From positions 1 to 16,060 of the forward strand of contig JBBCAW010000127.1 of assembly GCA_051382295.1 (NCBI GenBank): 16,060 nucleotides of DNA, read 5' to 3'. Positions 2,802 to 16,060 of the stretch are shown here, one piece after another; position 1 is the first letter of the stretch, and the number at the start of each line of letters is the position of its first letter. A program made the translations under genes and the position numbers. This stretch comes from Bdellovibrionota bacterium FG-1. Its GTDB lineage: Bacteria > Bdellovibrionota > UBA1018. The notes beneath the pieces were generated by a model. It did no database searches. It was not told where the DNA came from and worked only from the letters and a program-made list of their open reading frames with translations.

Positions 2802-3374
2802 GTGGGGTCAGAAGCAAAAAAATATGCGACCTACATCGACCTGTTAGCGTTGCCCGACCCTCTCGTGGGGGAGATCATCGCGGGCGAACTTGTTAAGTCG
2901 CCACGACCCGGACCTAGGCATGCGAGAGCTTCCTCGGTGCTTGGGAGCAAAATCACGAGTCCCTTTGATGAAGGGCAAGGTGGTCCGGGTGGCTGGTGGA
3001 TCTTGGATGAGCCAGAAATTCATCTCGGCCAAAATATTTTGGTCCCGGACCTCGCAGGGTGGAAGAAAGAAAAATTGCCGAATATTCCGGTCGAAAAGGC
3101 ATATTTTGAGATAGCGCCAAATTGGGTGTGTGAAGTTCTTTCGAATAAAACTGCGGGTTTGGATCGCGTAAAAAAACTTCCAATTTATGCGCAGGAAAAA
3201 GTCGATCACGTCTGGTTGATCGATCCGGATAAGAAGACGCTCGAAATCTATTCCAGGGATGCGGCCCGGTGGATCCTTCTTAGTTCGTTTGCCGGAAATG
3301 AACGAGTTCGAGCCGCGCCATTTGATGCGGTAGAGATAGATCTTGGGGCGCTCTGGTTACCCGATGAACTTTGA
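2802..3374 (+). CDS. Uma2 family (DUF820) PD-(D/E)xK-fold putative endonuclease
   Basis: Family motifs ATYxDLLALP, EIIAGEL-xx-SPRP-xx-RH, PDLAGW, PNWVCEVLS, DRVKKLPIYA, HVWLIDP. GTG start lies 1 nt after the upstream stop. Confidence 0.92.
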   Translation: MGSEAKKYATYIDLLALPDPLVGEIIAGELVKSPRPGPRHARASSVLGSKITSPFDEGQGGPGGWWILDEPEIHLGQNILVPDLAGWKKEKLPNIPVEKAYFEIAPNWVCEVLSNKTAGLDRVKKLPIYAQEKVDHVWLIDPDKKTLEIYSRDAARWILLSSFAGNERVRAAPFDAVEIDLGALWLPDEL

Positions 3375-3401
3375 TTAGCTCAGAACTCTGACGCAAGCGC
3401 T

Positions 3402-3417
3402 CCTGTATCGATACAGG
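3402..3417. terminator. Perfect 16-bp palindrome between convergent genes; possible bidirectional terminator or binding site
   Basis: CCTGTATCGATACAGG is its own reverse complement and abuts the HEPN stop. No U-tract. Confidence 0.35.
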
Positions 3418-3801
3418 CTAGCCTATTTGGAGCAATCCCAGCGTCTTTAAGGCTTCAAGGCAGCGAAGAGAATCTTGCTCAACATAAGATTGGTCCGGAA
3501 TAAAGTCTTCTGCGCCGTAGAATGAGGGAATTCGTTCTCCAGTGAGAAATTCAAAAATGGATTCTAGGCTGCAAAGCGCCGGTGAGTTCAATCCAGATGC
3601 AAGTTGATTTAGATCATGAGTCTTCGCAGGTTCAATTCCTTTTTCAAGCAGTTTGCCCTTAATATATAGTTCAATGCTCTCGCCCGCTTTTCTGACAACT
3701 CTCTCAAAGTCTTTTTTTAGGTGGCTTTCATGAGCTTCTTGCGCGATTTTAATCGCTGCTCTCAAGTCGTAATCCGCACGCCGTTTTTGTCCATCGGTCA
3801 T
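3418..3801 (-). CDS. HEPN domain protein (MNT-associated, PF05168-like)
   Basis: 127 aa, helical, with RADYDLRAA, AGESIELYIKG, PAKTHDL and ERIPSFYG. Lies 5 nt downstream of the MNT gene. Confidence 0.85.
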   Translation of the reverse strand: MTDGQKRRADYDLRAAIKIAQEAHESHLKKDFERVVRKAGESIELYIKGKLLEKGIEPAKTHDLNQLASGLNSPALCSLESIFEFLTGERIPSFYGAEDFIPDQSYVEQDSLRCLEALKTLGLLQIG

Positions 3802-3806
3802 AGTGT

Positions 3807-4268
3807 TTAGGCTACCTCATCCTTCGGAACCCACATCCAGCCACCTTTGGAGAGCAGGTTTTTGCGCCATAGGCCTTGCTGAATCCAGGTGCGCGCCTCT
3901 CCAAGCGATTCGGATAAGAAGCCATCGTCTTTGAGAACCCAACAATTTTCAGACAACGATAGTCGCAACCCTACAGAGCTTAACCAGCCTGTTTCGCTGA
4001 TCATTAGGGGTGAGCAAGAAAGCGGAGCCTGAGGGTGAGGCCGTTGCTTGCGCCAGGATTGGTTGAACGGAAGAAACCACTGGGAACGTTCATAAGGGGA
4101 GCGAGGAATCGAATCTCCAATCAAAAGAATATCGAGATCACTATTTTCCGTCAGCGCACCCGATGAAAAGGAACCAAAAATAGCAACGCAACGCGGCTCG
4201 GGCTTTAAAAGTTGTGCCGTTTGACTTCGAATCCATTGCGCAACTATTTGACGATCAGGTAGTTCCAT
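3807..4268 (-). CDS. Minimal nucleotidyltransferase (MNT, Pol beta superfamily); antitoxin-like partner of the HEPN gene
   Basis: VAIFGSFSSGALTENSDLDILLI matches the GS-x10-DxD nucleotidyltransferase signature. Gene order is MNT then HEPN. Confidence 0.88.
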   Translation of the reverse strand: MELPDRQIVAQWIRSQTAQLLKPEPRCVAIFGSFSSGALTENSDLDILLIGDSIPRSPYERSQWFLPFNQSWRKQRPHPQAPLSCSPLMISETGWLSSVGLRLSLSENCWVLKDDGFLSESLGEARTWIQQGLWRKNLLSKGGWMWVPKDEVA

Positions 4269-4276
4269 CGAAATCT

Positions 4277-4304
4277 ATCTTACAAGATTCTCAGGTCAGG
4301 TCAA
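4277..4304 (-). promoter_or_regulatory. Putative sigma70 promoter for MNT-HEPN, probably giving a leaderless transcript
   Basis: Minus strand TTGACC-N16-TAAGAT. The -10 ends 8 nt before ATG 4268 and no Shine-Dalgarno is present. Confidence 0.55.
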
Positions 4305-4696
4305 GAGCACCCGCCCCACCTGTTGAGAGCGTGGTCGAGGGTGGCGAATAATTCTTGCGCCACAAAATTTTCGGCGATGTACTCCTTATAAATTCTTAAA
4401 GACTCCATCGAAAGACACCAGATCATTGGGGTTGATCGTAGTCTTGCCGGCGAGGCTCAGTTTCTGCAGAATGTCTTGCGGATTGAGTTCGCCCCCAAAG
4501 ATCGTTTTGAGGGACGTGTATTTTTGGAAATTGAAAATATGGATTTGGGGGAAAGCTTGTTTTCCACAGGATTCGACGTGGTGCTTTTCCCAACTTGCCG
4601 AACACTCCAGAGGATAAATGGGAGGCGTCCTGATTTGCTTTTCCATTCAAAGAGTTGGCTGATTAAGCTTCTTTTGAATGGAGTCGGATGTGCCAT
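4301..4696 (-). pseudogene. Decayed AAA_14/DUF4143-type ATP-binding protein
   Basis: Family motifs are spread over frameshifted fragments: FKRSLISQLFEWK...PFILWSVRQVGKS (degenerate Walker A); GKQAF...FNFQ...LNPQDIL...LVSFD (Walker B region); YKEYIAENFVAQEL...RW (DUF4143-like motif). The remnant is far shorter than an intact gene. Confidence 0.8.
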
Positions 4697-4801: not shown

Positions 4802-4878
4802 AACTTCTCAAATTGGGAAGTTAAGCGGCTAAGTCCCCAGGGCCTAACGCCCGTAACTTCACCAAATCGGAAGAGGCG
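4802..4878 (+). repeat. Diverged third copy of the hairpin-doublet (REPIN-like) element
   Basis: aACTTCTCAAAttgGGAAGTTA...GCCCgTAACTTCACcaaaTCGGAAG aligns with the 76-bp repeats at 14565 and 15586, in the same orientation and 1 nt longer. Confidence 0.8.
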
Positions 4879-4986
4879 GCGCACCACCGGCGCACCACAA
4901 GTGCGCCAGAGGAGTACCACAGGCGTCGCCACCGTTTAACGTCGCAAACCTCCGTATTTACACGCTATTTTCGCAATCCCAAATAC

Positions 4987-5016
4987 TTGACCAAAAAACT
5001 CCACCTATGTTACACT
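4987..5016 (+). promoter_or_regulatory. Putative sigma70 promoter for the lipoprotein cluster
   Basis: TTGACC-N18-TACACT with an extended -10 TG at 5008-5009. Confidence 0.6.
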
Positions 5017-5175
5017 AATCACTGGGGAGTCGTGGGGAAATCAAGCGGTCCAGCAAAACGTCTCGGGGTACAGGTAAAACATTTAAAGTAACGCGTGATA
5101 TCGCCACGACGCCCTCCAAGGGTCTTTAGTATTTCCGAAGACTTGTCGAAGAGAAGAAGAGGAGGACGTAGCCGC

Positions 5176-6270
5176 GTGAAAACATATACTCCAACCACGA
5201 CACTCATGAAGTCAACCCTCGCGCTTGGCGCGTGCCTCGCACTCACGTCTTGCTACGAAACTCCTCGCTCTGTACCTGCAAGCAATCAAGCTTCGGGTGT
5301 AAACGGGAATCTTCAAGCCGAAGCCTCACCCTCTCCCGGACCTGCAACAAGCTACGGCGCGGCCGGTGTAAAAATCGCAAAGATTATTTTCAAATCCTCT
5401 ACCGAGGGGAGTTTTGATTCAGCATCTGTCGGCGGAACGTTATCAAAACCCGGCTTGGGCGCGCAGGCAGTTCGCCTCTTCAACGGGGATGGGTCTGCAC
5501 TCTCAAGCGGTGGCCCAAGCGTCCCGACTTGGCCACGGTGGCTTACCTCTGTGGAACTCGGAATCAGTGGCGCAAACAATGCGTCGGCTCCCGGTGCGGA
5601 TTGCGCACGCTTTGCGGATCCCTCTGAAAGTACAAATTCACAATGCTCCATCAATTTCCCAGATCCCGCAAAACCCGGCGCGATGGCGGCAACGTCGATG
5701 CCCTGTGGCGGCCCCGCCGGCTTCTATCGCGTGAGTGAGTATGATTGCGCAGAAATTCCCACGGCGCCCGGAACGGGGGGGCCTTTGGATGGCGTCTATG
5801 TGCGCGTGCAACTCAATCGAGAGCCCGCGGCGATTGCCCCGGGAGAAAACCTGCTTGCGATTCTTGAATACACCGCTTCGGGCCTAAACAATGCGCCGGT
5901 GCAGCCCACGGATTGCGTGAAAAATGGCCAGCTTGCGGCCGAAAATTGTTCCGATATGACTTGGAAGGTTTTTATAAAGCAAACCTCCCTGGACGTCGTG
6001 CAACCCTTTCTGCTCTTGGCACCCCCGCTGCTTGTACGCAACCAGCCCGAGGGCGTCGTTGGCGGTTCTGAGATTCAGACGAAGCAGATTGTGATTCCAC
6101 TGGCGACCGATCCCGCGCTTTCAGTCATTCAATTCTCACGCATCTCCGGCGCGGCGAATGCAGCGCGCGCTTCTTCGATTAAAGCCCTTTGTCAGGGCGG
6201 ACAATCAGCCGGAAACTCGCCCCTTTGCGCGGGGATGGTCCTCTATTCGTTAACGCTGATGAGGTTCTAG
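5176..6270 (+). CDS. Predicted Cys-rich lipoprotein A (about 364 aa), unknown function
   Basis: GGAGGA at 5161-5166 precedes GTG 5176 (alternative ATG 5206; track start 5095). Lipobox STLALGACLALTS-C. Shares motifs with the next gene. Confidence 0.8.
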   Translation: MKTYTPTTTLMKSTLALGACLALTSCYETPRSVPASNQASGVNGNLQAEASPSPGPATSYGAAGVKIAKIIFKSSTEGSFDSASVGGTLSKPGLGAQAVRLFNGDGSALSSGGPSVPTWPRWLTSVELGISGANNASAPGADCARFADPSESTNSQCSINFPDPAKPGAMAATSMPCGGPAGFYRVSEYDCAEIPTAPGTGGPLDGVYVRVQLNREPAAIAPGENLLAILEYTASGLNNAPVQPTDCVKNGQLAAENCSDMTWKVFIKQTSLDVVQPFLLLAPPLLVRNQPEGVVGGSEIQTKQIVIPLATDPALSVIQFSRISGAANAARASSIKALCQGGQSAGNSPLCAGMVLYSLTLMRF

Positions 6271-6272
6271 CA

Positions 6273-9200
6273 ATGGTTGCTCTCCTCGCTACGCCATCAC
6301 GCCTTGGAGGTCGGCATAAAACGGGAGGGCGGGCGTGCATGGTTTTGAGCCTGGCCTTGAGCGCGCTTGTTGGCTGCACCGGCAACCCTCGTGCTTTTAA
6401 CAAAGGCGAAACCCCAACTGTCAAAAACATTTTACAAGACCAGCTTCAGGATCAAGCCCACATCGCCTCTAGCAGTGTCGGGGTGCGGGTGAAATTTCAG
6501 TTTCAGGACTTCTATTCGCTGGCGTCCCCGAATCGCCAAAACAGTTGCGCAGGTGATGCGCGCACTTATTATGACCCTTTGAAACTAACCGAAAATCAAG
6601 CACCATTGAAATTTCCAGATGACGCTTTGAATCCGTCGACCACGATTACGCCTTCGTTTATCAAAAACGTGTCGGTGGATCTGACCGATGCAAACACGCC
6701 TTCGACTCTCAATGCGGCGCTTTCATGCAGCCTAGGTTCCGACCCGAGTCTGCCTCCGCCTTCGAGTTGTGCGACGTTTGACTACGGCGCCTTGGGCGGG
6801 TTGGACGCTTCGCTGGGCGGCGGGGTCCTAATGGTCGGAGGAATCGAAGGCTCCTCCACGCTCGGTTCATCGCTCTACGGAGTATCGATTCATGCGCTCC
6901 CGCCTTCGGCTGCGACGAACCCGCCGAACGCGCAAGTGCCTGGACTGTTGAAAGCCGATAAGCCGATTTCTTTTTGGAATGATCTATCGAGTACCCCCAC
7001 ATATGCGGGTCCTGTCCAAGTTGTCGGCGCGGCCTCGGCGTTTAGCGCCTCGCAACGAAAACTTTTGCTTTTTGGCGGAAGCATTCCGAGCGGCACTTCT
7101 TGGAACTCTTCTTCGCGCGATACCTGGAGTTTGGAGGTCGGCACTCAGACCTGGTCGCTTGTGAAAACGGCGATCAACGTGGATGCTTCGATCACCACCG
7201 TGCACGATAAGGCGAACGCTACTGCGGTTTTTCAATTCTCCAAAAATCCCGGCGCGCGCGCGGGATTTGGTTACGTCGCGGCTCAGGGGTTTGCGCTGGA
7301 GGGGCTTGCCGGCGATTTTGATAAGACCGATCGCCTGATGATTGTTGGGGGAGTGACGCCGAATACAATAAACGATAGCAATGCGGCCACTTCGAGTACC
7401 AACCCTTCTCTGCTCTATCGCTTCAATCCGACCTATGGGCCCGAGTTGGTGGACGCGCACAACGCCACTAACGCCACTCTAGGCTTTTGGGTTGATAATT
7501 ATCACACCCAGGTAATGAGCAACATCAGTAAGACGGATTCTCAACTGTTGTTCGGAAACTACCCCTTAAGTGAAATGGGTTTTTTCGCTTTACGCCAAGA
7601 AACTACTAAACGGGGCTATCTGTTATCGAGCGGAGGCTTCAAGCTCCCCGCAAAGACTCTTGATAAAACGCTTGATGCCCCCATCTTCTTGGAGCCAAAA
7701 GAGGTTTCTCCTAACCGGGATTTTCTTGCGGGTAGCAAAGACATACCCTCGGATCTTCTGTCCGTCTCCAACTGGCTTCTCGATTATCTGGTGCTTTCAC
7801 CCGCAGTCTGGCATGTGGCCGCCCCTCTCAATAATATGCTCTGGTTCGGCGGCGTCAGCGCTCAGCGTGGATTTTCGCTCGTCGATAATGAAATCCTCTA
7901 TTTTGGCGGAACTTATTGCCGAGGGTATTGGTTTTCGGATTGTGCCGCGGTGACCGGTGCCACAACTCCGGCTACTGGCCAAAAGCCCACAGTTCAAACA
8001 AATACCGGTGCGTACGTTAAACTCGGCGCCGATCTCTCCGGTACGGGCGCGCGCACTCTTGATAACGGACCGCCCGTCGCCGCCGGGCTCGCTTCGGCGC
8101 GCGGCCTGGACCCCGCGGGCAAAGTCATTATCGTCGCGTGGGGCGGGGTGCTTGATGATTTCAAGACGGCACTTGCCAATGATCTTTATTATCTCCACAA
8201 CACCAGCGGGAGCAAAGCCACGTGGGTCAAAGTACAGGCCGAGGGTGCCGATCTTCTTCCTATTGCCGGGCAGGGGCAAGCCTACTCAAATTCTGCCTTA
8301 GTCTTTAGCCACGTGACCCACAAGTTCTACCTCTTTGGTGGGTTCTCCAAAGAATCAAAGAAGGTGCTTGATTCAACCTGGGAGCTTAGCGTGTCGGGCG
8401 GCGCTTGTACGGCGGACGCGAAGACCACGCCTTGTAAATTTGCGTGGAAAAAACTCACCGCCGAAAACGGACTTACTTGCTCACCACAGTGTCCTTCGGC
8501 GCGGTTCCTCCATCGAATGGCGGAAGTGAATTATTATAATCGCGACGCCGCCAAAGAACCGGATTGTACAAAATCTAATGAACCCTGCTCTTTTGGAATA
8601 TTCATGGAGGGGGGGACGGATATGAATCTTTTCCTCTCGGATCGTTGGATGTATGACCCGGTGGCGCACTACGATCCCGTGGGTAAGAGCTGGGTCGGGC
8701 ATTGGCAGAAAATGGACGAGCTGCCCCCGCGAGTATTTGGCTCGATGGCGGCGGTCGATCTCAAAATTGCTTCGACGGGAAAAACCTACCCGCGCGCGGT
8801 GATGTTCGGCGGCGAGACGGGGATGCGGACGGCGGGGCTGGTTCCGATGACCGCGCTCGTTGCGCCTTCGGGAGTTTTAGAATATTTTGTCGCGCCCACC
8901 TTAGGAGATACGTGGATTTACGACTTTGAAAAAGAGAGTTGGAATCGGGCCAAATTGCAGGGTGGCGGCAAGGTAACGGATCCGATCAACGAGCATTTTC
9001 CTCCACCGCTCTCGGGCGCCGTGATGATCACGCGGGACTTCAAAGGGGCTAAAGTTCCGGAGGTCTTTTTATTTGGCGGTCGAACAAAGGATGGTACGTT
9101 CGCCCCTCTGAGCAAGGTCTATAAGTTTTGCTTAGGTTCGGAGTCAGAGAATCCCAGCGCCCCCTACGATTGTCTTGATCCCCAATACGTAACCGAACCT

Positions 9201-10262
9201 ACGGCGAAATACGAAGGCCGTTGGTTTGCCAAGGCCCCTTTTGCGGCGGTCGCGCGCGGCGCTTTCTTAGGGGCTGGTACCTATGATTCCACGCATGATC
9301 TGCTGCTTTTGACGGGCGGGCTTTACGGCGACAAGGTGGCGTTGAGTAACGTCGGAAAACTGCAGGCCGGCTCCGAGGTGCTTGAATATACTCCTCCGAA
9401 CAAACAGCACTCGGGAGGGGCGTGGCGGGTGGTGGCGCCTTGTGGCGTGGTCCCGCCTGAGCGTTTTGGGCATTCGATGCATTATGATGCGGTACAAGAC
9501 CGAGTCTTCTTAGTCGGGGGCACTAGTCCCACAGGAACTCCCTTGAGCCAAACAATTGTGGGGAGCGATAGTAAGGATCTGTCCATCCCGGACATGTGGG
9601 TGGGGAAACGCACCGGCGCCGTGGAGGATGGAACGCTTTGCTACGACTGGGAACAGGTTTCGACTTTTGGAAATGCTTTTGGTTTGAGCGGCGAAAAGAA
9701 TCCCCCTGCGGCGCTAAGTTTTGCGGCAAGCATTTATCTCCCCTCGTCGGGCTACAATACGGGGTATTATACGCTGACCGATTCGGCGTGTGCAAAGGCG
9801 GGCCCCATACTTTCGCCCGATTTTGAGGTCAATAAAACGTTGGCGGGTGGGGCCTACCTCGATATTGATCGCAGCGCTTTGGGGCCTAGCGAGAACCTTG
9901 TGCTTCATCTGAAATACATTCCTCAAGGTCCCCCGGGCCAAAAAGTCGATAAAACGGCCATGAGCGCCGTTGATGCCAGCTACTTTAAAATTCATCTCGT
10001 TAAAACAAATCAAACGCAGAGCGCTCTTCAACAAGTCCAGCAGCCTCGGTACCTCGCTTATACCTCCTTAAATCGTTATCCCCAGGTCGTGCAAACGCTC
10101 TCGGTGCTTGCGCCGGCGGATAATCAAATTCATGAGGATCAGATTGTGATTCCGTTGGCGATTGATCCTGAGATTGATCGCATTCGAATTGAACGTGTTT
10201 CAGGAAGTGCCGTCCTTCTCGAGGCCGCTGTCTATCGAATGGGCAATCGGGGGCAGCCATGA
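6273..10262 (+). CDS. Predicted lipoprotein B with about 12 Kelch-type repeats (likely double beta-propeller)
   Basis: ATG 6273 follows the upstream stop (alternative ATG 6339 with GGGAGG). Lipobox LSLALSALVG-C. Twelve hhhhGG motifs (VLMVGG, LLLFGG, LMIVGG, LLSSGG, ILYFGG, IVAWGG, FYLFGG, IFMEGG, AVMFGG, VFLFGG, LLLTGG, VFLVGG), many followed by DTW/DRW/DLY and a later W. Confidence 0.85.
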   Translation: MVALLATPSRLGGRHKTGGRACMVLSLALSALVGCTGNPRAFNKGETPTVKNILQDQLQDQAHIASSSVGVRVKFQFQDFYSLASPNRQNSCAGDARTYYDPLKLTENQAPLKFPDDALNPSTTITPSFIKNVSVDLTDANTPSTLNAALSCSLGSDPSLPPPSSCATFDYGALGGLDASLGGGVLMVGGIEGSSTLGSSLYGVSIHALPPSAATNPPNAQVPGLLKADKPISFWNDLSSTPTYAGPVQVVGAASAFSASQRKLLLFGGSIPSGTSWNSSSRDTWSLEVGTQTWSLVKTAINVDASITTVHDKANATAVFQFSKNPGARAGFGYVAAQGFALEGLAGDFDKTDRLMIVGGVTPNTINDSNAATSSTNPSLLYRFNPTYGPELVDAHNATNATLGFWVDNYHTQVMSNISKTDSQLLFGNYPLSEMGFFALRQETTKRGYLLSSGGFKLPAKTLDKTLDAPIFLEPKEVSPNRDFLAGSKDIPSDLLSVSNWLLDYLVLSPAVWHVAAPLNNMLWFGGVSAQRGFSLVDNEILYFGGTYCRGYWFSDCAAVTGATTPATGQKPTVQTNTGAYVKLGADLSGTGARTLDNGPPVAAGLASARGLDPAGKVIIVAWGGVLDDFKTALANDLYYLHNTSGSKATWVKVQAEGADLLPIAGQGQAYSNSALVFSHVTHKFYLFGGFSKESKKVLDSTWELSVSGGACTADAKTTPCKFAWKKLTAENGLTCSPQCPSARFLHRMAEVNYYNRDAAKEPDCTKSNEPCSFGIFMEGGTDMNLFLSDRWMYDPVAHYDPVGKSWVGHWQKMDELPPRVFGSMAAVDLKIASTGKTYPRAVMFGGETGMRTAGLVPMTALVAPSGVLEYFVAPTLGDTWIYDFEKESWNRAKLQGGGKVTDPINEHFPPPLSGAVMITRDFKGAKVPEVFLFGGRTKDGTFAPLSKVYKFCLGSESENPSAPYDCLDPQYVTEPTAKYEGRWFAKAPFAAVARGAFLGAGTYDSTHDLLLLTGGLYGDKVALSNVGKLQAGSEVLEYTPPNKQHSGGAWRVVAPCGVVPPERFGHSMHYDAVQDRVFLVGGTSPTGTPLSQTIVGSDSKDLSIPDMWVGKRTGAVEDGTLCYDWEQVSTFGNAFGLSGEKNPPAALSFAASIYLPSSGYNTGYYTLTDSACAKAGPILSPDFEVNKTLAGGAYLDIDRSALGPSENLVLHLKYIPQGPPGQKVDKTAMSAVDASYFKIHLVKTNQTQSALQQVQQPRYLAYTSLNRYPQVVQTLSVLAPADNQIHEDQIVIPLAIDPEIDRIRIERVSGSAVLLEAAVYRMGNRGQP

Positions 10263-10492
10263 GGTCATGGGGGACACGCGTAGAACTTTTTTACGCTGAA
10301 AAAAACTTGGGCACCCGCGTCGGCCAACCGGATTCGTCTTACTATTTACGGTCTTCGCTCGAGATTTGTCGAAAAATTGGGCAAATTCGCCGTTTTTTTG
10401 AAATTTTCAGAAAAATCCTAAGTCCCCGATACTCCTCGTTCTGCACACCTTTTGCCCGAGACTTGCAAGATAGTGCTTGGGGGTATTCTAAA

Positions 10493-12223
10493 TTGTTTTT
10501 AAGGGGGCATACACGCATTTTTCTGCTGTTACTTGCGCTGCCTGTTTTAGGCGGCTGTCTCAATAACGGTGGGACCAAGCCTTATTCAAACACCTCAGCG
10601 AAACAAGGGCTGATGGCGAGCAATCCTTTGGTCGGGGGTCAAGACGATGGCACCAACCTCTTGAAACTGCTTTATGTCGTGCGTAACTCCATGGATCCAA
10701 GTGGGACGCTGGATCTCATCGGCGATGATTCGCAGACGATGGGCCAGTTTTGTGCGGCTAACACCACGGCTGCGCAGGTGAGTGCGGGCGCCTCGAATTG
10801 CACCTGTGTTTTTGATTACATAAAAGCTGATGGCGCGCATGAGTCTTTTGAAGTGCCCACGATCTACAATGAAGCAAGTCTCTTGCGGTGCAAGTACACC
10901 CAAGTTCCTGCGGGCCTCCCTTATATGAATGTGCGGATTCACCTGACGAATGCCGATGCTTTTTCAAATACCATGAAATTCTATTTTCAGTCGGGCACGA
11001 ACTCGATTGCTGATCTGAGTAACCCCGTGAGTTTCATCCAAGCGCAGCGATATCAGTGCAAAGACCTCGTGACGATCGGACATATTTTCGATCCAACGAA
11101 TATGTATGATCCGTTTCAGTCTGCGGATCCCGCACTTTCTTTTCCGCTTAATTTTTACACCAATAACCTGGGGGGCGCGCTCGCGGCTTATGTCGGCGCC
11201 AACGTTCAAAGTTGGAATTGTCCACCCATCCCAAATGATCCTAACGAGAATATGGACCGGAGGATTTTCAGCGTCTATGCGGACAATAAAGGGAGTAAAC
11301 TAATTTATCCGCCCGAGGGCAGCGAGTTTGATCGCTCGACGTTTTATCTGGCCAAGAAGTCGGCGGGAGCTTTTGAAGTGGCGATTAATGCCTATATTGC
11401 GCCTCAGCTCGCTTCGGCCGATCCAGGCCCTGATGGTACGCAAGGGGGCACGGCACCGCCCCCTCTAGGTTATGGCGCAAAAACGGTTGTGGCCGGGTCC
11501 GGTCGGGAAGTCTGTCCTGTGGATACGGTGATTCCGCCTGGTTTTAAATGGGTCAAACTGTGGTTGTTTCGTGCGGATCTTCCCAAACGTAAGTATCGGA
11601 CCAGTGGCGTGCTGAGCGGCATGCATTCGGTGGCGTGCCAGCCAGATCCGTATTTTTTCAAGGGACCGAGCAAGGACGGGACAACAATAACAAACACGGC
11701 GGTCATCAACAGCTGTAAAGATGTAGCAGAGAGCTATCTGCTTAGAATCTTCGGGGGCCCTGAGGGAAACGCTAGTTGTCAGCCGATCACGGTGGCTAAT
11801 AATTCACTGGTCGAAGGGCAAACCTTTCATAATGCGGAGAACGCACTCGGTTTTCCCAAAGACACACTTTATAACGACGCATCGCGGAGCAGCATCGTCG
11901 ATGCGCAGCCAGGGACGGGTGACCTCGACGGCACTAATCCGCGATACGATTTTCTCTTTGTAGTCTCGCCGCCTGAGGTCATGTCCTCAGAAATGATCAA
12001 ATCCGAGTCTGCCGCACGATATACCTATACCCCTTATCGTTTTCCTATAGCTTCGGATTGTACCTCCAATGATCCCGATCAAGCGGGAAAAGGGGATTGT
12101 CTGGGGAGTAAAATTATTCACTATGAGATCAAGCTCCACGATGTTGCCGGTAACGGCGACCCGCCAGGGGATGATCCTTCACGCCAAGGAGTGTTTCCAG
12201 TATGTGCACTGCAACCTCTCTAA
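10493..12223 (+). CDS. Predicted Cys-rich lipoprotein C (about 576 aa), unknown function
   Basis: In-frame TTG 10493 after a G-rich RBS-like tract at 10479-10484 gives MFLRGHTRIFLLLLALPVLGG-C, a clean lipoprotein signal. The track start at 10259 is an alternative but adds 78 aa of intergenic-looking sequence. Confidence 0.8.
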   Translation: MFLRGHTRIFLLLLALPVLGGCLNNGGTKPYSNTSAKQGLMASNPLVGGQDDGTNLLKLLYVVRNSMDPSGTLDLIGDDSQTMGQFCAANTTAAQVSAGASNCTCVFDYIKADGAHESFEVPTIYNEASLLRCKYTQVPAGLPYMNVRIHLTNADAFSNTMKFYFQSGTNSIADLSNPVSFIQAQRYQCKDLVTIGHIFDPTNMYDPFQSADPALSFPLNFYTNNLGGALAAYVGANVQSWNCPPIPNDPNENMDRRIFSVYADNKGSKLIYPPEGSEFDRSTFYLAKKSAGAFEVAINAYIAPQLASADPGPDGTQGGTAPPPLGYGAKTVVAGSGREVCPVDTVIPPGFKWVKLWLFRADLPKRKYRTSGVLSGMHSVACQPDPYFFKGPSKDGTTITNTAVINSCKDVAESYLLRIFGGPEGNASCQPITVANNSLVEGQTFHNAENALGFPKDTLYNDASRSSIVDAQPGTGDLDGTNPRYDFLFVVSPPEVMSSEMIKSESAARYTYTPYRFPIASDCTSNDPDQAGKGDCLGSKIIHYEIKLHDVAGNGDPPGDDPSRQGVFPVCALQPL

Positions 12224-14526
12224 TTCGAATTCTATTTGTGATGGGCGCGGGCGCCTCCGTCTTTTCGGCGTGCACCAACTCGGGTGCGCCTCGAAAACCT
12301 ACGAAACCTGCCGCGAGAGCCAGCGGCACGCCGGGTTCCTCGACGGAGGCTTCGGCAAATGTGCTTACGACGGATCCGGCGCTAACCTATCGTGTTTCGT
12401 CAACGACGCTTGAAGAGGAGGATTCCAATCCCGTGCCGGCGCCCAGTTCGACAGCCAATGCGCCTGCACCGACGGTAAATATTTTCTTGAACGCAGACGC
12501 GCAGGCGTCTCCTTTTTCGTATCATTGTAACACGGTCACCGGCGCTTCCGCCGGAGGGCAGACGGCGAAACCCTGCAATTGTGAGTACACCTGGCAGGAA
12601 GTGAACCAGACGGGCGCAAAAGCCATTGCCGTTCCACGCTTGGTTCGCACGCCGGTCCTGGTTGCCCAGCCGAACCTTGTAAGTTGCAAAGCGCCGAGTA
12701 TGTATCACTCAGAAATTCCGGATGGGACCTTGATCAAGCTCGATATTCTACCGGCGCCTGGCAATGGCGACAAATTTGTGGTGAAGCCTTATACGCTGAC
12801 GAAAGCGTTGGGGGCAGTGGCGGGGGCGTTTCAAGATGAAAAGGGGAACACGTTTGATAACGTGCTTCGCTATTCTTGTTATGAGCAGTTTAAGCGGGGA
12901 ATGTCCATTCAGAGTAAAGTCGTAAAAGTTAGCGATACCGGGACCTCGGGGATGACGGCGAAAATTCCAATGGCGTCTCAGTTTTGTGTGCGCAAAGCGG
13001 GCGGGGGTGGGAGTGATTGCGAAGGTTTAGGCCAGCCTGAGAATTCGGCCCAGGCGTACTACTACAATCTGTTTATTCGAAACTCAGAGAACGGCGATAT
13101 CAATTATAATAATGGACGCTACATTTGTCCGCGTGTGCAAGAGTCCTTGGTTCAATCTGCGGTTTCTGGGACGAAGGGGACGCAAGGTCTGGCGTGGCCT
13201 TTGGACTCAAGTTTTGCCGTGTCGCTCAATCCATCTCCGGATTTTTCGGTCGGAATTGAAGCTTTCACAAAGCTAGCCTCGCTAGGGACAGACAAGGATC
13301 CGACGGCCGTAAGCTCGGGGTGCTTTAATAATTCCGCGAGCGGAGGGGGCGCGGCTTCGGGCGGCGAAACCGCGAGCGGTGGTTTTGTTAAATCGTGTTT
13401 GGGGTTTGCGGCGCCCCCCAGCGCGGCCGGGCAGTGTCCTGCGTTTAAGGATAGTTCCGGCCAAGTGCGCCGGACTTATCGGTTGCGTCGCTACGTTGCG
13501 CTTTTTCCGCCTGCCTTCGATACGGATGGCAAGCCGCTTGCGCAGGCACAATCGGTGGATACGATTTTTGTCGTGGATCGGCCCGTAAAAAACCCTGCGG
13601 ACCCCTTGAAGGAGTTTACGATGCTGGGGCCGAAGCCTTGTAACTTCGCATATTTTGATCATAAGAAGGTGACGAACGCGTCGATGGATCCCACAAACCA
13701 GGACGATACGCAGCATTATGTTGCGACCAATAGTTCCCTTTGGTTTGGCAAGAATGTCGATGGAATTGAATTGCCGAACACTTACGTGAAGGGGGCTAGC
13801 TGTCCCGCTGTGGTCCCGGTGTTGAGTGATGATCGGAGCACGTTTGCGTTGATCAGTGTTAAAAAGAACGACCAGAATGTAACATTGGATCATCTGTATG
13901 TTCGGCCCATTCGTCCTTGGGCACCTCACTACGAGGAGGACACCGATTTTCAAGCGTGTGTGCCGCTGGCGTCGCCTCTGCGAGATCCCCCGCTTCATTT
14001 TCAACAAGTGAGTCCGAAAGGAAACCTAGCTCAGGCGTGGTGCGCGGAGGCGTATCCGACACAGAACGATAATTTTGGCGAGATTGCGAAAAAAGTAACT
14101 ACGGATGCTGGCGGCAAAACAACTGTAAAATACGACAATACAATTCATCCCTATACGTCACACGGTGTGAAGAATACTGCGAAAGCTAGTGAGTGTTCAT
14201 CGACTCCTATGACGTTTCCTTCCAATGTTACAGGGCTTGAGCCTGTAGCCAAAAAAACCGATCTTTGCGATCGCACCGTCGTGGCAGGCAGTTTGGATTG
14301 GCCGAGGTTTCCGCTGCTCGCGCCGTCAGACAATGTCGAGCTCATGATGGTGATGGATTCCAGCTATCAGTGCACACTCACTTATGATGCCGGTGGCGGC
14401 AGGACTGGTAGAGGGACGCCGGCAGCGGGCTGTTGCGCAGCTGGCGTTTTGAAAAATGGGACGGCGGAGACTCCCGTCGGCGCGCACCTTGAGCCCGGCA
14501 CGGAGTGCGGCACGCCGGCGTATTGA
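12202..14526 (+). CDS. Predicted Cys-rich lipoprotein D (774 aa), paralog of lipoprotein C
   Basis: Overlaps the upstream gene by 22 nt. Signal LIRILFVMGAGASVFSA-C followed by a Pro/Ser/Thr linker. Motifs are collinear with lipoprotein C. Confidence 0.85.
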   Translation: MCTATSLIRILFVMGAGASVFSACTNSGAPRKPTKPAARASGTPGSSTEASANVLTTDPALTYRVSSTTLEEEDSNPVPAPSSTANAPAPTVNIFLNADAQASPFSYHCNTVTGASAGGQTAKPCNCEYTWQEVNQTGAKAIAVPRLVRTPVLVAQPNLVSCKAPSMYHSEIPDGTLIKLDILPAPGNGDKFVVKPYTLTKALGAVAGAFQDEKGNTFDNVLRYSCYEQFKRGMSIQSKVVKVSDTGTSGMTAKIPMASQFCVRKAGGGGSDCEGLGQPENSAQAYYYNLFIRNSENGDINYNNGRYICPRVQESLVQSAVSGTKGTQGLAWPLDSSFAVSLNPSPDFSVGIEAFTKLASLGTDKDPTAVSSGCFNNSASGGGAASGGETASGGFVKSCLGFAAPPSAAGQCPAFKDSSGQVRRTYRLRRYVALFPPAFDTDGKPLAQAQSVDTIFVVDRPVKNPADPLKEFTMLGPKPCNFAYFDHKKVTNASMDPTNQDDTQHYVATNSSLWFGKNVDGIELPNTYVKGASCPAVVPVLSDDRSTFALISVKKNDQNVTLDHLYVRPIRPWAPHYEEDTDFQACVPLASPLRDPPLHFQQVSPKGNLAQAWCAEAYPTQNDNFGEIAKKVTTDAGGKTTVKYDNTIHPYTSHGVKNTAKASECSSTPMTFPSNVTGLEPVAKKTDLCDRTVVAGSLDWPRFPLLAPSDNVELMMVMDSSYQCTLTYDAGGGRTGRGTPAAGCCAAGVLKNGTAETPVGAHLEPGTECGTPAY

Positions 14527-14564: not shown

Positions 14565-14640
14565 CACTTCTCAAACAGCGAAGTTAGAGGCCTACCGCCC
14601 CGACCCTTCGGCCCTTAACTTCACTCTTTCGGAAGTCGCG
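14565..14640 (+). repeat. 76-bp hairpin-doublet repeat (REPIN-like), left flank of the transposase
   Basis: 75/76 identical to 15586-15661 (C14609 vs G15630). Imperfect palindrome containing ACTTC-N9-GAAGT at 14566-14584 and 14618-14636. Confidence 0.95.
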
Positions 14641-15475
14641 CAGGAAAAAGCTCCACAGGAATTTTCTCTCGCAGCCTTGCGTCTCCCAAACACAGCGCGG
14701 CTGCAGCGAGCGCGGAAGGTGCCGGCGGGTTTTCCAAGGTATAATGGATGGCGCGGGGAGTGGTGTGGCAGATCTTTGCCAGCGGCCGGATTTGCTTCCA
14801 ACCAAAGCGGTGCGCGACGTGAATAAAGAGGGTGCGCAGAGGGCCTTTTTGACGGACTTCGCTGGCCGGGGTTTGAAGCGCGGCGGAGGTGGCTTTGAGA
14901 ATTTCTCCAATTGAATGCTCGGCCCATGCGGTGGGTTGCGCTGCGCGGGCCGGCGCGGTTCCTTCAATGGCCACCGACGGATCCCCGGATACATAGGCGT
15001 GAAAGCGGACTTGAAAATCTTTTTCCCGCTCCTTTAAAATCCGCCTCAAAGTGTCCGGGCTCACCCACGGCGTGGCGGTGGTCCGGGCGAGATCGCGGTA
15101 TGTTGACCACACCCACGCGAGGGGATCGGCGCAGAGTTCGGCGCGACAAGGATTAAGCGCCACGTATCTGATTTGCCGGCGCAAATGATGAAGGTCCGGA
15201 ATGAGCGCGGGCGGCGCAATGGGCTGCCAAAGTTTGGAAACGCCCGCGTCTTTGCTAACCGCGCCCAAGACTCCCGTAATTTTGGCGAGGTCATCACGTT
15301 CCGCTTGTTGAGGCACAATCAAGTGAAGGTGGTTCGGCATGAGGATGGCCGACAGCGCGCCCGGAAATAATTTTTTCAAAAAATTCCAAGCGCGGCACGC
15401 GGGTTCAAATTGTTTAAAGGGGTGATGGTGGGTGGTGGCGCGGACGGTCCAGTGATTCCATTTGGGTTGATTCAT
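14621..15475 (-). CDS. Y1 HUH transposase (RAYT/IS200-like) with C-terminal helical, HTH-like extension (about 284 aa)
   Basis: HWTVRA N-terminal strand, AILMPNHLHLIV (HUH motif), LWQ, IRYVALNPCRAEL...WVWSTY (catalytic Tyr and RAYT-type tail). ATG 15475 is preferred because the track start at 15505 coincides with the edge of a promoter motif. Confidence 0.9.
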   Translation of the reverse strand: MNQPKWNHWTVRATTHHHPFKQFEPACRAWNFLKKLFPGALSAILMPNHLHLIVPQQAERDDLAKITGVLGAVSKDAGVSKLWQPIAPPALIPDLHHLRRQIRYVALNPCRAELCADPLAWVWSTYRDLARTTATPWVSPDTLRRILKEREKDFQVRFHAYVSGDPSVAIEGTAPARAAQPTAWAEHSIGEILKATSAALQTPASEVRQKGPLRTLFIHVAHRFGWKQIRPLAKICHTTPRAIHYTLENPPAPSALAAAALCLGDARLREKIPVELFPARLPKE

Positions 15476-15488
15476 GGGTTTGCAGTTG

Positions 15489-15504
15489 TGCAATGAGTTT
15501 GCCA
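15489..15504 (-). promoter_or_regulatory. Putative sigma54 (-24/-12) promoter of the transposase
   Basis: Minus strand TGGCAAA-CTCA-TTGCA against consensus TGGCACG-N4-TTGCW, with exact GG/GC spacing. Predicted +1 near 15478, about 3 nt before the ATG. Confidence 0.6.
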
Positions 15505-15585
15505 ATGGGGGGTGGCGTGAATTCCGCGTGCGGGGTGCTCACAGGGTTTTGCCCGCGCGCTGCCGATGCGCCTGTGCTTCGGCGT

Positions 15586-15661
15586 CACTTCTCAAACAGC
15601 GAAGTTAGAGGCCTACCGCCCCGACCCTTGGGCCCTTAACTTCACTCTTTCGGAAGTCGCG
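15586..15661 (+). repeat. 76-bp hairpin-doublet repeat (REPIN-like), right flank of the transposase
   Basis: Direct repeat of 14565-14640 at an offset of 1021 bp, with one mismatch in the central spacer. Confidence 0.95.
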
Positions 15662-15790
15662 GCCCCGGAGAGGCATGTGGAATCCGTCCCGGCGCCTCGC
15701 CGGCGTACACGTCACCCTCGCTGCGCTGTCCGTGACCGCCGCGCGTTCAGGCGTTGATTTCACAGCGTTTTTTCTCAACAAATGTTCCGA

Positions 15791-15819
15791 TTGACTCACG
15801 ATACGCACTGCGTCATAAT
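15791..15819 (+). promoter_or_regulatory. Putative sigma70 promoter for the 15909 gene
   Basis: TTGACT-N17-CATAAT, near consensus. Confidence 0.7.
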
Positions 15820-15908: not shown

Positions 15909-16060
15909 ATGCTCTTTGGCGCCGCCAAAAAACAGAGTCGCATCGCATGGCTCGTACTCGTTTCGTACGCGAGTTCGCTGGCGTCGTTTCCGGCTTGGGC
16001 CTCGCCCGATTCAATGACTTATGACAATGACAAGTTCAAGCCTCCGGAGGTCACTCAAAG
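15909..16060 (+). CDS. 5' end (partial) of a secreted protein paralogous to the 311-2800 protein
   Basis: GGGGGA precedes ATG 15909. Translation MLFGAAKKQSRIAWLVLVSYASSLASFPAWA-SPDSMTYDNDKFKPPEVTQ aligns with MLKNSRRIYSWIVLASYLGSI...AHA-SGDSMQYDNTKYTPPDV. Open to the window end, so absent from the ORF track. Confidence 0.85.
   Translation, partial: MLFGAAKKQSRIAWLVLVSYASSLASFPAWASPDSMTYDNDKFKPPEVTQ

Follow-up and report, generated by a model that had tools for sequence, protein, structure and literature searches.

The window analysed here is a stretch of 16,060 bp that makes up the entire contig C127 of the 4.4-Mb assembly of Bdellovibrionota bacterium FG-1 (G000). Towards its end, a single long ORF on the minus strand (14621-15475, 284 aa counted from the ATG) encodes a RAYT-like HUH/Y1 transposase and stands alone between two 76-bp direct repeats, the left one downstream (14565-14640) and the right one upstream (15586-15661) of the gene. 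As the first-pass annotation had described, the repeats begin 1021 bp apart and differ by one mismatch; this is a C/G difference at repeat position 45, and identity is 99%. The last five codons (RLPKE) and the TGA stop (14621-14623) are encoded within the left repeat, likewise in agreement with that annotation; we propose that this is a by-product of the position of the repeat at the 3' end of the gene. A search of the 76-bp repeat against its own genome, which had been suggested at the same time, recovered the pair with E 2e-32 and identified a third, gene-less copy at 4803-4873 that has diverged to 70% identity and is a solo REPIN-like element. In total, three copies of the repeat, all on C127, and a single copy of the transposase gene were found in G000.

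Over three stretches, the contig is 93-99% identical to G013, a relative that carries another genus label. On its independent contig, the right repeat copy occurs at the orthologous position, identical letter for letter and followed by 18 bp of inner sequence. Duplication of one repeat during assembly is unlikely because of this copy, the differing flanks of the two repeats, and the same layout in homologs. As the G013 contig ends 18 bp inside the unit, its locus is not an empty allele, and no cognate transposase gene was found in G013, which is 85% complete. C127 would derive from a G013-like organism, through mis-binning or transfer. C127 may be mis-binned, since it is 93-99% identical to G013 in places and the repeat family is missing from the rest of G000. 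Composition separates the contig weakly from its assembly, as it ranks 21st most distant of 217 chunks with a GC content of 53.6% versus 51.1 +/- 1.3%.

Variable cargo at 2802-4696 lies between conserved operons, adjoins the solo repeat, and comprises a Uma2-family gene, an MNT-HEPN toxin-antitoxin pair, and an AAA-ATPase-like gene that is broken. In G013 (L261), the HEPN gene is swapped for about 700 bp of other DNA between flanks of 93-99% identity. Paralogous large unannotated genes occupy 266-2800 and 15909-16060; the gene at 15909 encodes 1235 aa in G013, and G014 lacks it at the orthologous site. Clusters paralogous to the Kelch-repeat/lipoprotein operon (5095-14526) exist in both G000 and G014.

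Each repeat consists of two palindromic YTTC-N9-GAAR boxes, 52 bp apart, which form a doublet with a 69-bp core (14567-14635 in the left repeat, with boxes at 14567-14583 and 14619-14635, and 15588-15656 in the right repeat). The pattern used for doublets allowed lengths of 68-71 bp, and of 86 copies from five assemblies, 72 measured 69 bp, 13 measured 70 bp, and one measured 68 bp. TYC and GAA were near-invariant among 25 aligned copies, which had themselves been selected by the doublet pattern, and the spacers were lineage-specific. At positions left free in the pattern, pairing between the boxes (0.29-0.82) was mostly better than pairing within a box (0.12-0.62). The minus strand of the left repeat forms a long imperfect hairpin (z -3.4), and the window was without a match in Rfam. 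A GTAG foot, searched as the tetranucleotide GT[AG]G, was present at 1 of 140 element ends, target-site duplications at doublet ends did not rise above background (3.57 vs 3.51), and a conserved cleavage or target motif was looked for at these ends and not found. More distant homologs showed different palindromes in a comparable doublet layout. Integron attC and loxP/FRT-like readings of the repeat were dropped on the basis of their consensus sequences, since GTT...AAC runs in the opposite order to attC and the geometry is different.

NCBIfam, a profile search of the PDB, a tree, and a fold comparison all bear out that the transposase is RAYT-like and not an IS200 TnpA, as had been claimed. 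The NCBIfam model of REP-associated tyrosine transposases (NF047646) matched at E 6.7e-9 with 35.8 bits, under its cut-off of 80. No Pfam family was matched by the transposase; PF01797 was found at nine other loci of G000 and was absent at this one. The sole significant sequence match in the PDB was E. coli TnpA-REP (4ER8, E 4e-8). A structure model with a pLDDT of 95.8, compared with the PDB by a VIA-align search, resembled 4ER8 (Z 13.8, rmsd 2.9, 140 aligned residues) more closely than IS200 TnpAs (Z 7.5 and 6.8). C-terminal residues 187-268, within a DnaA-domain-IV-like domain at about 185-268, matched DnaA domain IV with Z 10.0 (rmsd 2.4, 82 aligned) and 9.8, and weak matches to Pfam HTH_29, HTH_23, and HTH_28 occurred in 7, 4, and 1 of 92 family members, respectively. 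H49, H51, Y104, N108, and P109 were invariant across the 92 homologs, out of 120 listed, that were aligned. The HuH motif and the catalytic tyrosine in a Y---NP signature, described for class 2 TnpA-Y1 (PMC6006769), are present as NHLH and YVALNP. Given these motif residues, the RAYT-like fold of the model, and the DnaA-domain-IV-like tail, the transposase appears to fit TnpA-Y1 subclass 2.1.2 (PMC6006769). The 33-row tree was built without labelled reference sequences of subclass 2.1; it united 19 family rows in one clade (97/98) separate from two IS200-type rows, and its deep branches leave the clade unplaced. Clustering at 50% identity, for matches with E values up to 1e-30, gave 550 clusters for the clade, and homologous loci were titled Oligoflexia/Bdellovibrionota, Myxococcota, and other metagenome-assembled genomes.

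A predicted sigma54-type -24/-12 promoter, TGGC-N7-TTGC, lies on the minus strand at 15490-15504, and we take this motif to be the sigma54 consensus. With 14 nt between motif and ATG, it would imply a nearly leaderless mRNA. Motifs of this type preceded 52 of 123 family genes (25 of them strict) vs 0 of 246 control windows, often 13-15 nt ahead of the start codon, and an rpoN domain was detected in all five genomes tested. No sigma70-type site was found on the transposase strand inside the unit. The solo repeat (within 4803-5010) and the right repeat (within 15586-15819) each precede, by about 115-135 bp, a sigma70-like promoter that belongs to a downstream operon, at 15791-15819 for the right repeat and read by eye near the solo.

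To describe the layout across the family, 190 loci were reduced to 123 including that of the window, by removal of five loci that were partial or belonged to another family, removal of further loci whose flanks were short or whose genes were incomplete, and merging of the rest at 90% identity. With a pair threshold score of 50, against a highest shuffled score of 37, repeat pairs were direct at 37 loci, inverted at 7, and ambiguous at 7, and 72 loci were unpaired. Homologs are often bracketed by repeat pairs of their own, mostly direct, which supports the first-pass annotation. Among the unpaired loci, 42 of 72 had a hairpin on at least one side, vs 0 of 72 in-gene controls. The stop codon fell within the repeat at 33 of 51 paired loci. 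Terminal inverted repeats, a TIRtron trait, are not present at this locus, where the repeats are direct; they accounted for the 7 inverted pairs among the 51, one of which is 96% identical. Four of six gene-flanking pairs were clearly mutual nearest copies, with one tie and one that was not. At one site shared between species, the pair appeared homogenised, as copies agreed at 62/70 and 66/70 positions inside the loci, compared with 56-58/70 across species; homogenisation was absent in L056/L060 and ambiguous in two further ortholog pairs.

Doublets were also dispersed without a gene in relatives. Pattern matches numbered 38 in G014, 20 in G027, 16 in G013, 13 in G026, 11 in G055, 8 in G066, 7 in G056, and 6 in G059, whereas a reversed-pattern control gave 0-1 in these eight gene-carrying relatives and never more than 3 across 75 genomes. 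At least four matches, a threshold chosen post hoc, occurred in 9 of 17 gene-carrying relatives and in 0 of 57 that lack the gene, with gene-flanking copies included in the counts and kin that are not independent. Of the 38 doublets in G014, 5 flank family genes and the others form subfamilies, three of which correspond to its three genes. Solos share spacer sequence with gene-flanking copies. Six solos of G013 are 56-65/69 identical to the repeat of the window, and G059 has a different doublet with about a dozen dispersed matches. The orthologous position of the 4803-4873 solo in G014 has no cognate repeat. Doublets that both flank the gene and are scattered in the genome, a canonical REPIN-RAYT trait, are therefore present in relatives and not in G000 outside C127. 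Such dispersed gene-less doublets are REPIN behaviour, and the repeat represents a REPIN-like family spread through the genome and no private att site.

The first-pass annotation had further regarded the gene as part of a mobile cassette that excises by recombination between its repeats. Mobility gains support from units that are present or absent at orthologous sites of related species; excision to one repeat does not, as 0 of 6 orthologous gene-less sites carry a cognate repeat above shuffled background. These six sites are from relatives that are about 70-90% identical, two of the comparisons are weak (a single flank; an N gap), and that of the window itself is also without the neighbouring gene, so that loss by deletion fits as well. 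The cleanest case is reciprocal, between the congeners G075 and G085, each of which has a unit about 4 kb from the site of the other, with flanks that are 78-90% identical. Both repeats are gone from the empty sites, and the flanking genes lie 28-97 bp apart. Searches for orthologous flanks in G060 and G093 yielded none. Synteny in the family was for the most part uninformative: most of 30 loci among the matches listed showed a lipoprotein homolog with a pseudouridine-synthase-like gene immediately after it; these lipoprotein homologs are distant paralogs, and the pseudouridine-synthase-like label derives from ORF starts. On balance, we lean towards a RAYT-like gene flanked by 69-bp doublets, whose enzyme would copy these doublets around the chromosome as solos and, more rarely, would move as part of a whole repeat-gene-repeat unit via the outer hairpin ends. 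Movement through the outer ends would leave repeat-free empty sites. It would be slow, to go by the comparison of genomes, in which no circle, precise junction, or activity was seen. No recent duplication was detected, as the top of 63 within-genome pairs among the fetched loci reached 87% DNA identity. Near-identical copies in one genome, an IS200/IS605 trait, are accordingly missing, and G000 has a single copy.

If the gene were instead immobile, REPINs would insert beside it and species would differ by deletion of old paralogs. We consider this doubtful, given up to 16 matches in a genome (10 in another) at unrelated sites, genes of 77-83% identity in unrelated contexts, and the reciprocal loss of both repeats in the congeners described above; independent REPIN insertions would also not yield an orientation bias. 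A single-copy gene at a fixed site, a canonical REPIN-RAYT trait, was not what was found, as there are up to 10-16 matches in a genome and the site varies between congeners. The same reading does account for several units that are kept at one site across species, for the lack of duplicates at 95% identity or more, and for the host-type sigma54 promoter motif. Plasmids and viral contigs also agree with it: the plasmid search gave no full-length relative, with partial similarity (33% identity) limited to two Rhodospirillum records, and the search of viral contigs gave none. The literature (PMC8266576; PMC3333891) reports no mobility of RAYTs.

Equally improbable, in our estimate, is a cassette of the gene plus one repeat, in which recombination between the repeats by the RAYT or RecA would produce a 1021-bp circle and an empty site with one repeat, followed by re-entry at solos. 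The excess of direct over inverted pairs (37 vs 7) suits this explanation, and a hypothetical circle (14565-15585) would retain the ORF, stop, and promoter motif, as had been pointed out in the first-pass annotation; yet none of the six gene-less sites kept a repeat, and the seven inverted pairs, including the 96% identical one, cannot excise in this manner, since recombination would invert the gene. Solos are available as possible targets, but entry there would give hybrids, and the two copies in the window (68/69 identical) resemble each other more than either resembles any fetched G013 solo (best 65/69). The 97%-identical G013 also retains the inner sequence adjoining the right repeat. Strand exchange between equivalent iREP sites by E. 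coli TnpA-REP has been reported in vitro (PMC3333891), and in G014 a GNAT gene likewise lies between the copies of a direct pair that measures about 140 bp, both of which favour such a cassette.

It is highly improbable that the repeats are regulatory and passively copied, with the DnaA-IV-like tail or a host sigma54 activator using the boxes as operators or enhancers. Solos share spacers with gene-flanking copies, which needs copying, another copy sits at the 3' end of the gene, and the flanks of solos show no enrichment of sigma54 motifs (1 of 137 flanks vs 1.07 expected). In favour of such a role, the constant N9 and 52-bp period would be suitable for binding by a protein, single-box pairing is weak at inner positions (0.44, 0.62, 0.12, 0.20), and the upstream copy precedes the predicted sigma54 start by about 110-185 bp.

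For the favoured movement of the whole repeat-gene-repeat unit, both ends would be recognised on the same strand, as in IS200/IS605 peel-and-paste transposition, and such recognition is proposed to account for the bias to direct orientation. The DnaA-IV-like tail would bind the TTC-N9-GAA box, which would be double-stranded once the stem has folded. Some pairs would be kept alike by gene conversion or local strand exchange, and expression would depend on sigma54. The HUH/Y104 centre would nick and rejoin single-stranded DNA at the folded doublet, as reported for E. coli TnpA-REP in vitro (PMC3333891).

The system shares traits with several known ones. With REPIN-RAYT systems or REPtrons of groups 2 and 3 (PDB 4ER8; bioRxiv 2021.07.10.451892; PMC8266576), as outlined in these sources, it has in common a palindrome doublet with spacer, dispersed solos, doublets that were mostly extragenic at the loci inspected, a subfamily per gene, and the best structural match. 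Unlike these REPtrons, it lacks the GTAG foot, has copies in the tens and not hundreds, an extra DnaA-IV-like domain, several paralogs per genome, and whole-unit presence and absence. REPINs are stated for groups 2 and 3 only, and the RAYT gene is stated to be immobile (bioRxiv 2021.07.10.451892; PMC8266576). Subclass 2.1.2 of TnpA-Y1 (Quentin et al. 2018, PMC6006769) equals Bertels RAYT group 1 according to its Table 1, and as characterised there it shares the NHxH HuH motif, WQ, YxxLNP, a long C-terminal HTH of Bac_DnaA_C/HTH_23/HTH_28 type, and low identity among copies within a genome. The same text reports no REP-like sequences beside subclass 2.1 genes, whereas most genes here have cognate hairpins, and these occur as families dispersed in the genomes. 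TIRYT/TIRtrons (Di Nocera et al. 2013, PMC3733652) are, by their published description, the closest precedent. They are RAYT-like genes with long non-GTAG flanking repeats, some of them self-complementary; some overlap the 3' end of the gene, as already shown for tyrosine transposases in the legends of Fig. 8-9, and some form moderate repeat families. In contrast to TIRs, which are described as inverted and in many cases carry GGGGWSAS (PMC3733652), the repeat pairs here are mostly direct (37 vs 7), and those of the close clade are TTC-N9-GAA doublets with a fixed 52-bp period. The Y1 HUH enzyme and empty sites without hairpins are shared with IS200/IS605. In IS608 and ISDra2, as here, the hairpins of the two ends share one orientation. 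IS200/IS605 enzymes carry YxxxQ and measure about 150 aa, compared with YxxxNP and 284 aa in the window, and unlike in IS200/IS605, near-identical copies are missing and each end is an entire doublet of a kind that also occurs as a solo.

Taken with the genome comparisons, a previously undescribed REPtron variant, with a unit that would be slowly gained or lost as a whole, seems to us the best reading and a somewhat probable one. In the literature consulted, no description of this repeat, the clade, or a sigma54-controlled RAYT was found; the supplementary figures and alignments of PMC3733652 and PMC6006769 could include members, and the taxa searched in the supplement text of the latter gave no matches. 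Held more tentatively is the wider possibility of a still-mobile, sigma54-controlled REPtron clade of predatory-type bacteria, in which the DnaA-IV-like domain would read TTC-N9-GAA doublets that spread as REPINs, the unit would transpose as repeat-gene-repeat, and pairs would capture other genes. Such a clade might be a living intermediate between IS200/IS605 and domesticated RAYTs and form a REPIN system that belongs to neither group 2 nor group 3. As observed, the clade gives a 2.1.2-type enzyme cognate dispersed repeats and its tail a candidate binding site, where the role of the DnaA-like tail in subclass 2.1 is stated as unknown in the literature consulted. It adds a conserved sigma54-type promoter motif and comparative signs of a unit changing place. 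The recognition target of the C-terminal domain and the way in which an IS200-like transposon became a domesticated REPIN-RAYT system thereby become testable.

Capture of neighbouring genes has been proposed by the authors of the E. coli TnpA-REP study (PMC3333891). In G014 (C314; L382:1005-1839), a direct doublet pair with about 140 bp duplicated brackets a gene for a 168-aa GNAT acetyltransferase, not a transposase, and the single flank with a match in G013 is without a repeat there. A second RAYT-like family (YVYRNP) with inverted-repeat flanks as in TIRtrons was observed in related genomes (L019-L021). Seven copies of another Y1 family (NHxH ... YLxKN) are present in G000 (L317-L323 on C33, C1, C41, C61, C98, and C130), and a similar gene lies at L284:6586-7017. 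Three and two of the seven copies are nearly identical, and this family looks more like a recently active element. In G077, a repeat of about 190 bp (L080:5280-5480), located 1.5 kb from a gene of the family studied here, has more than 30 dispersed matches in the genome.
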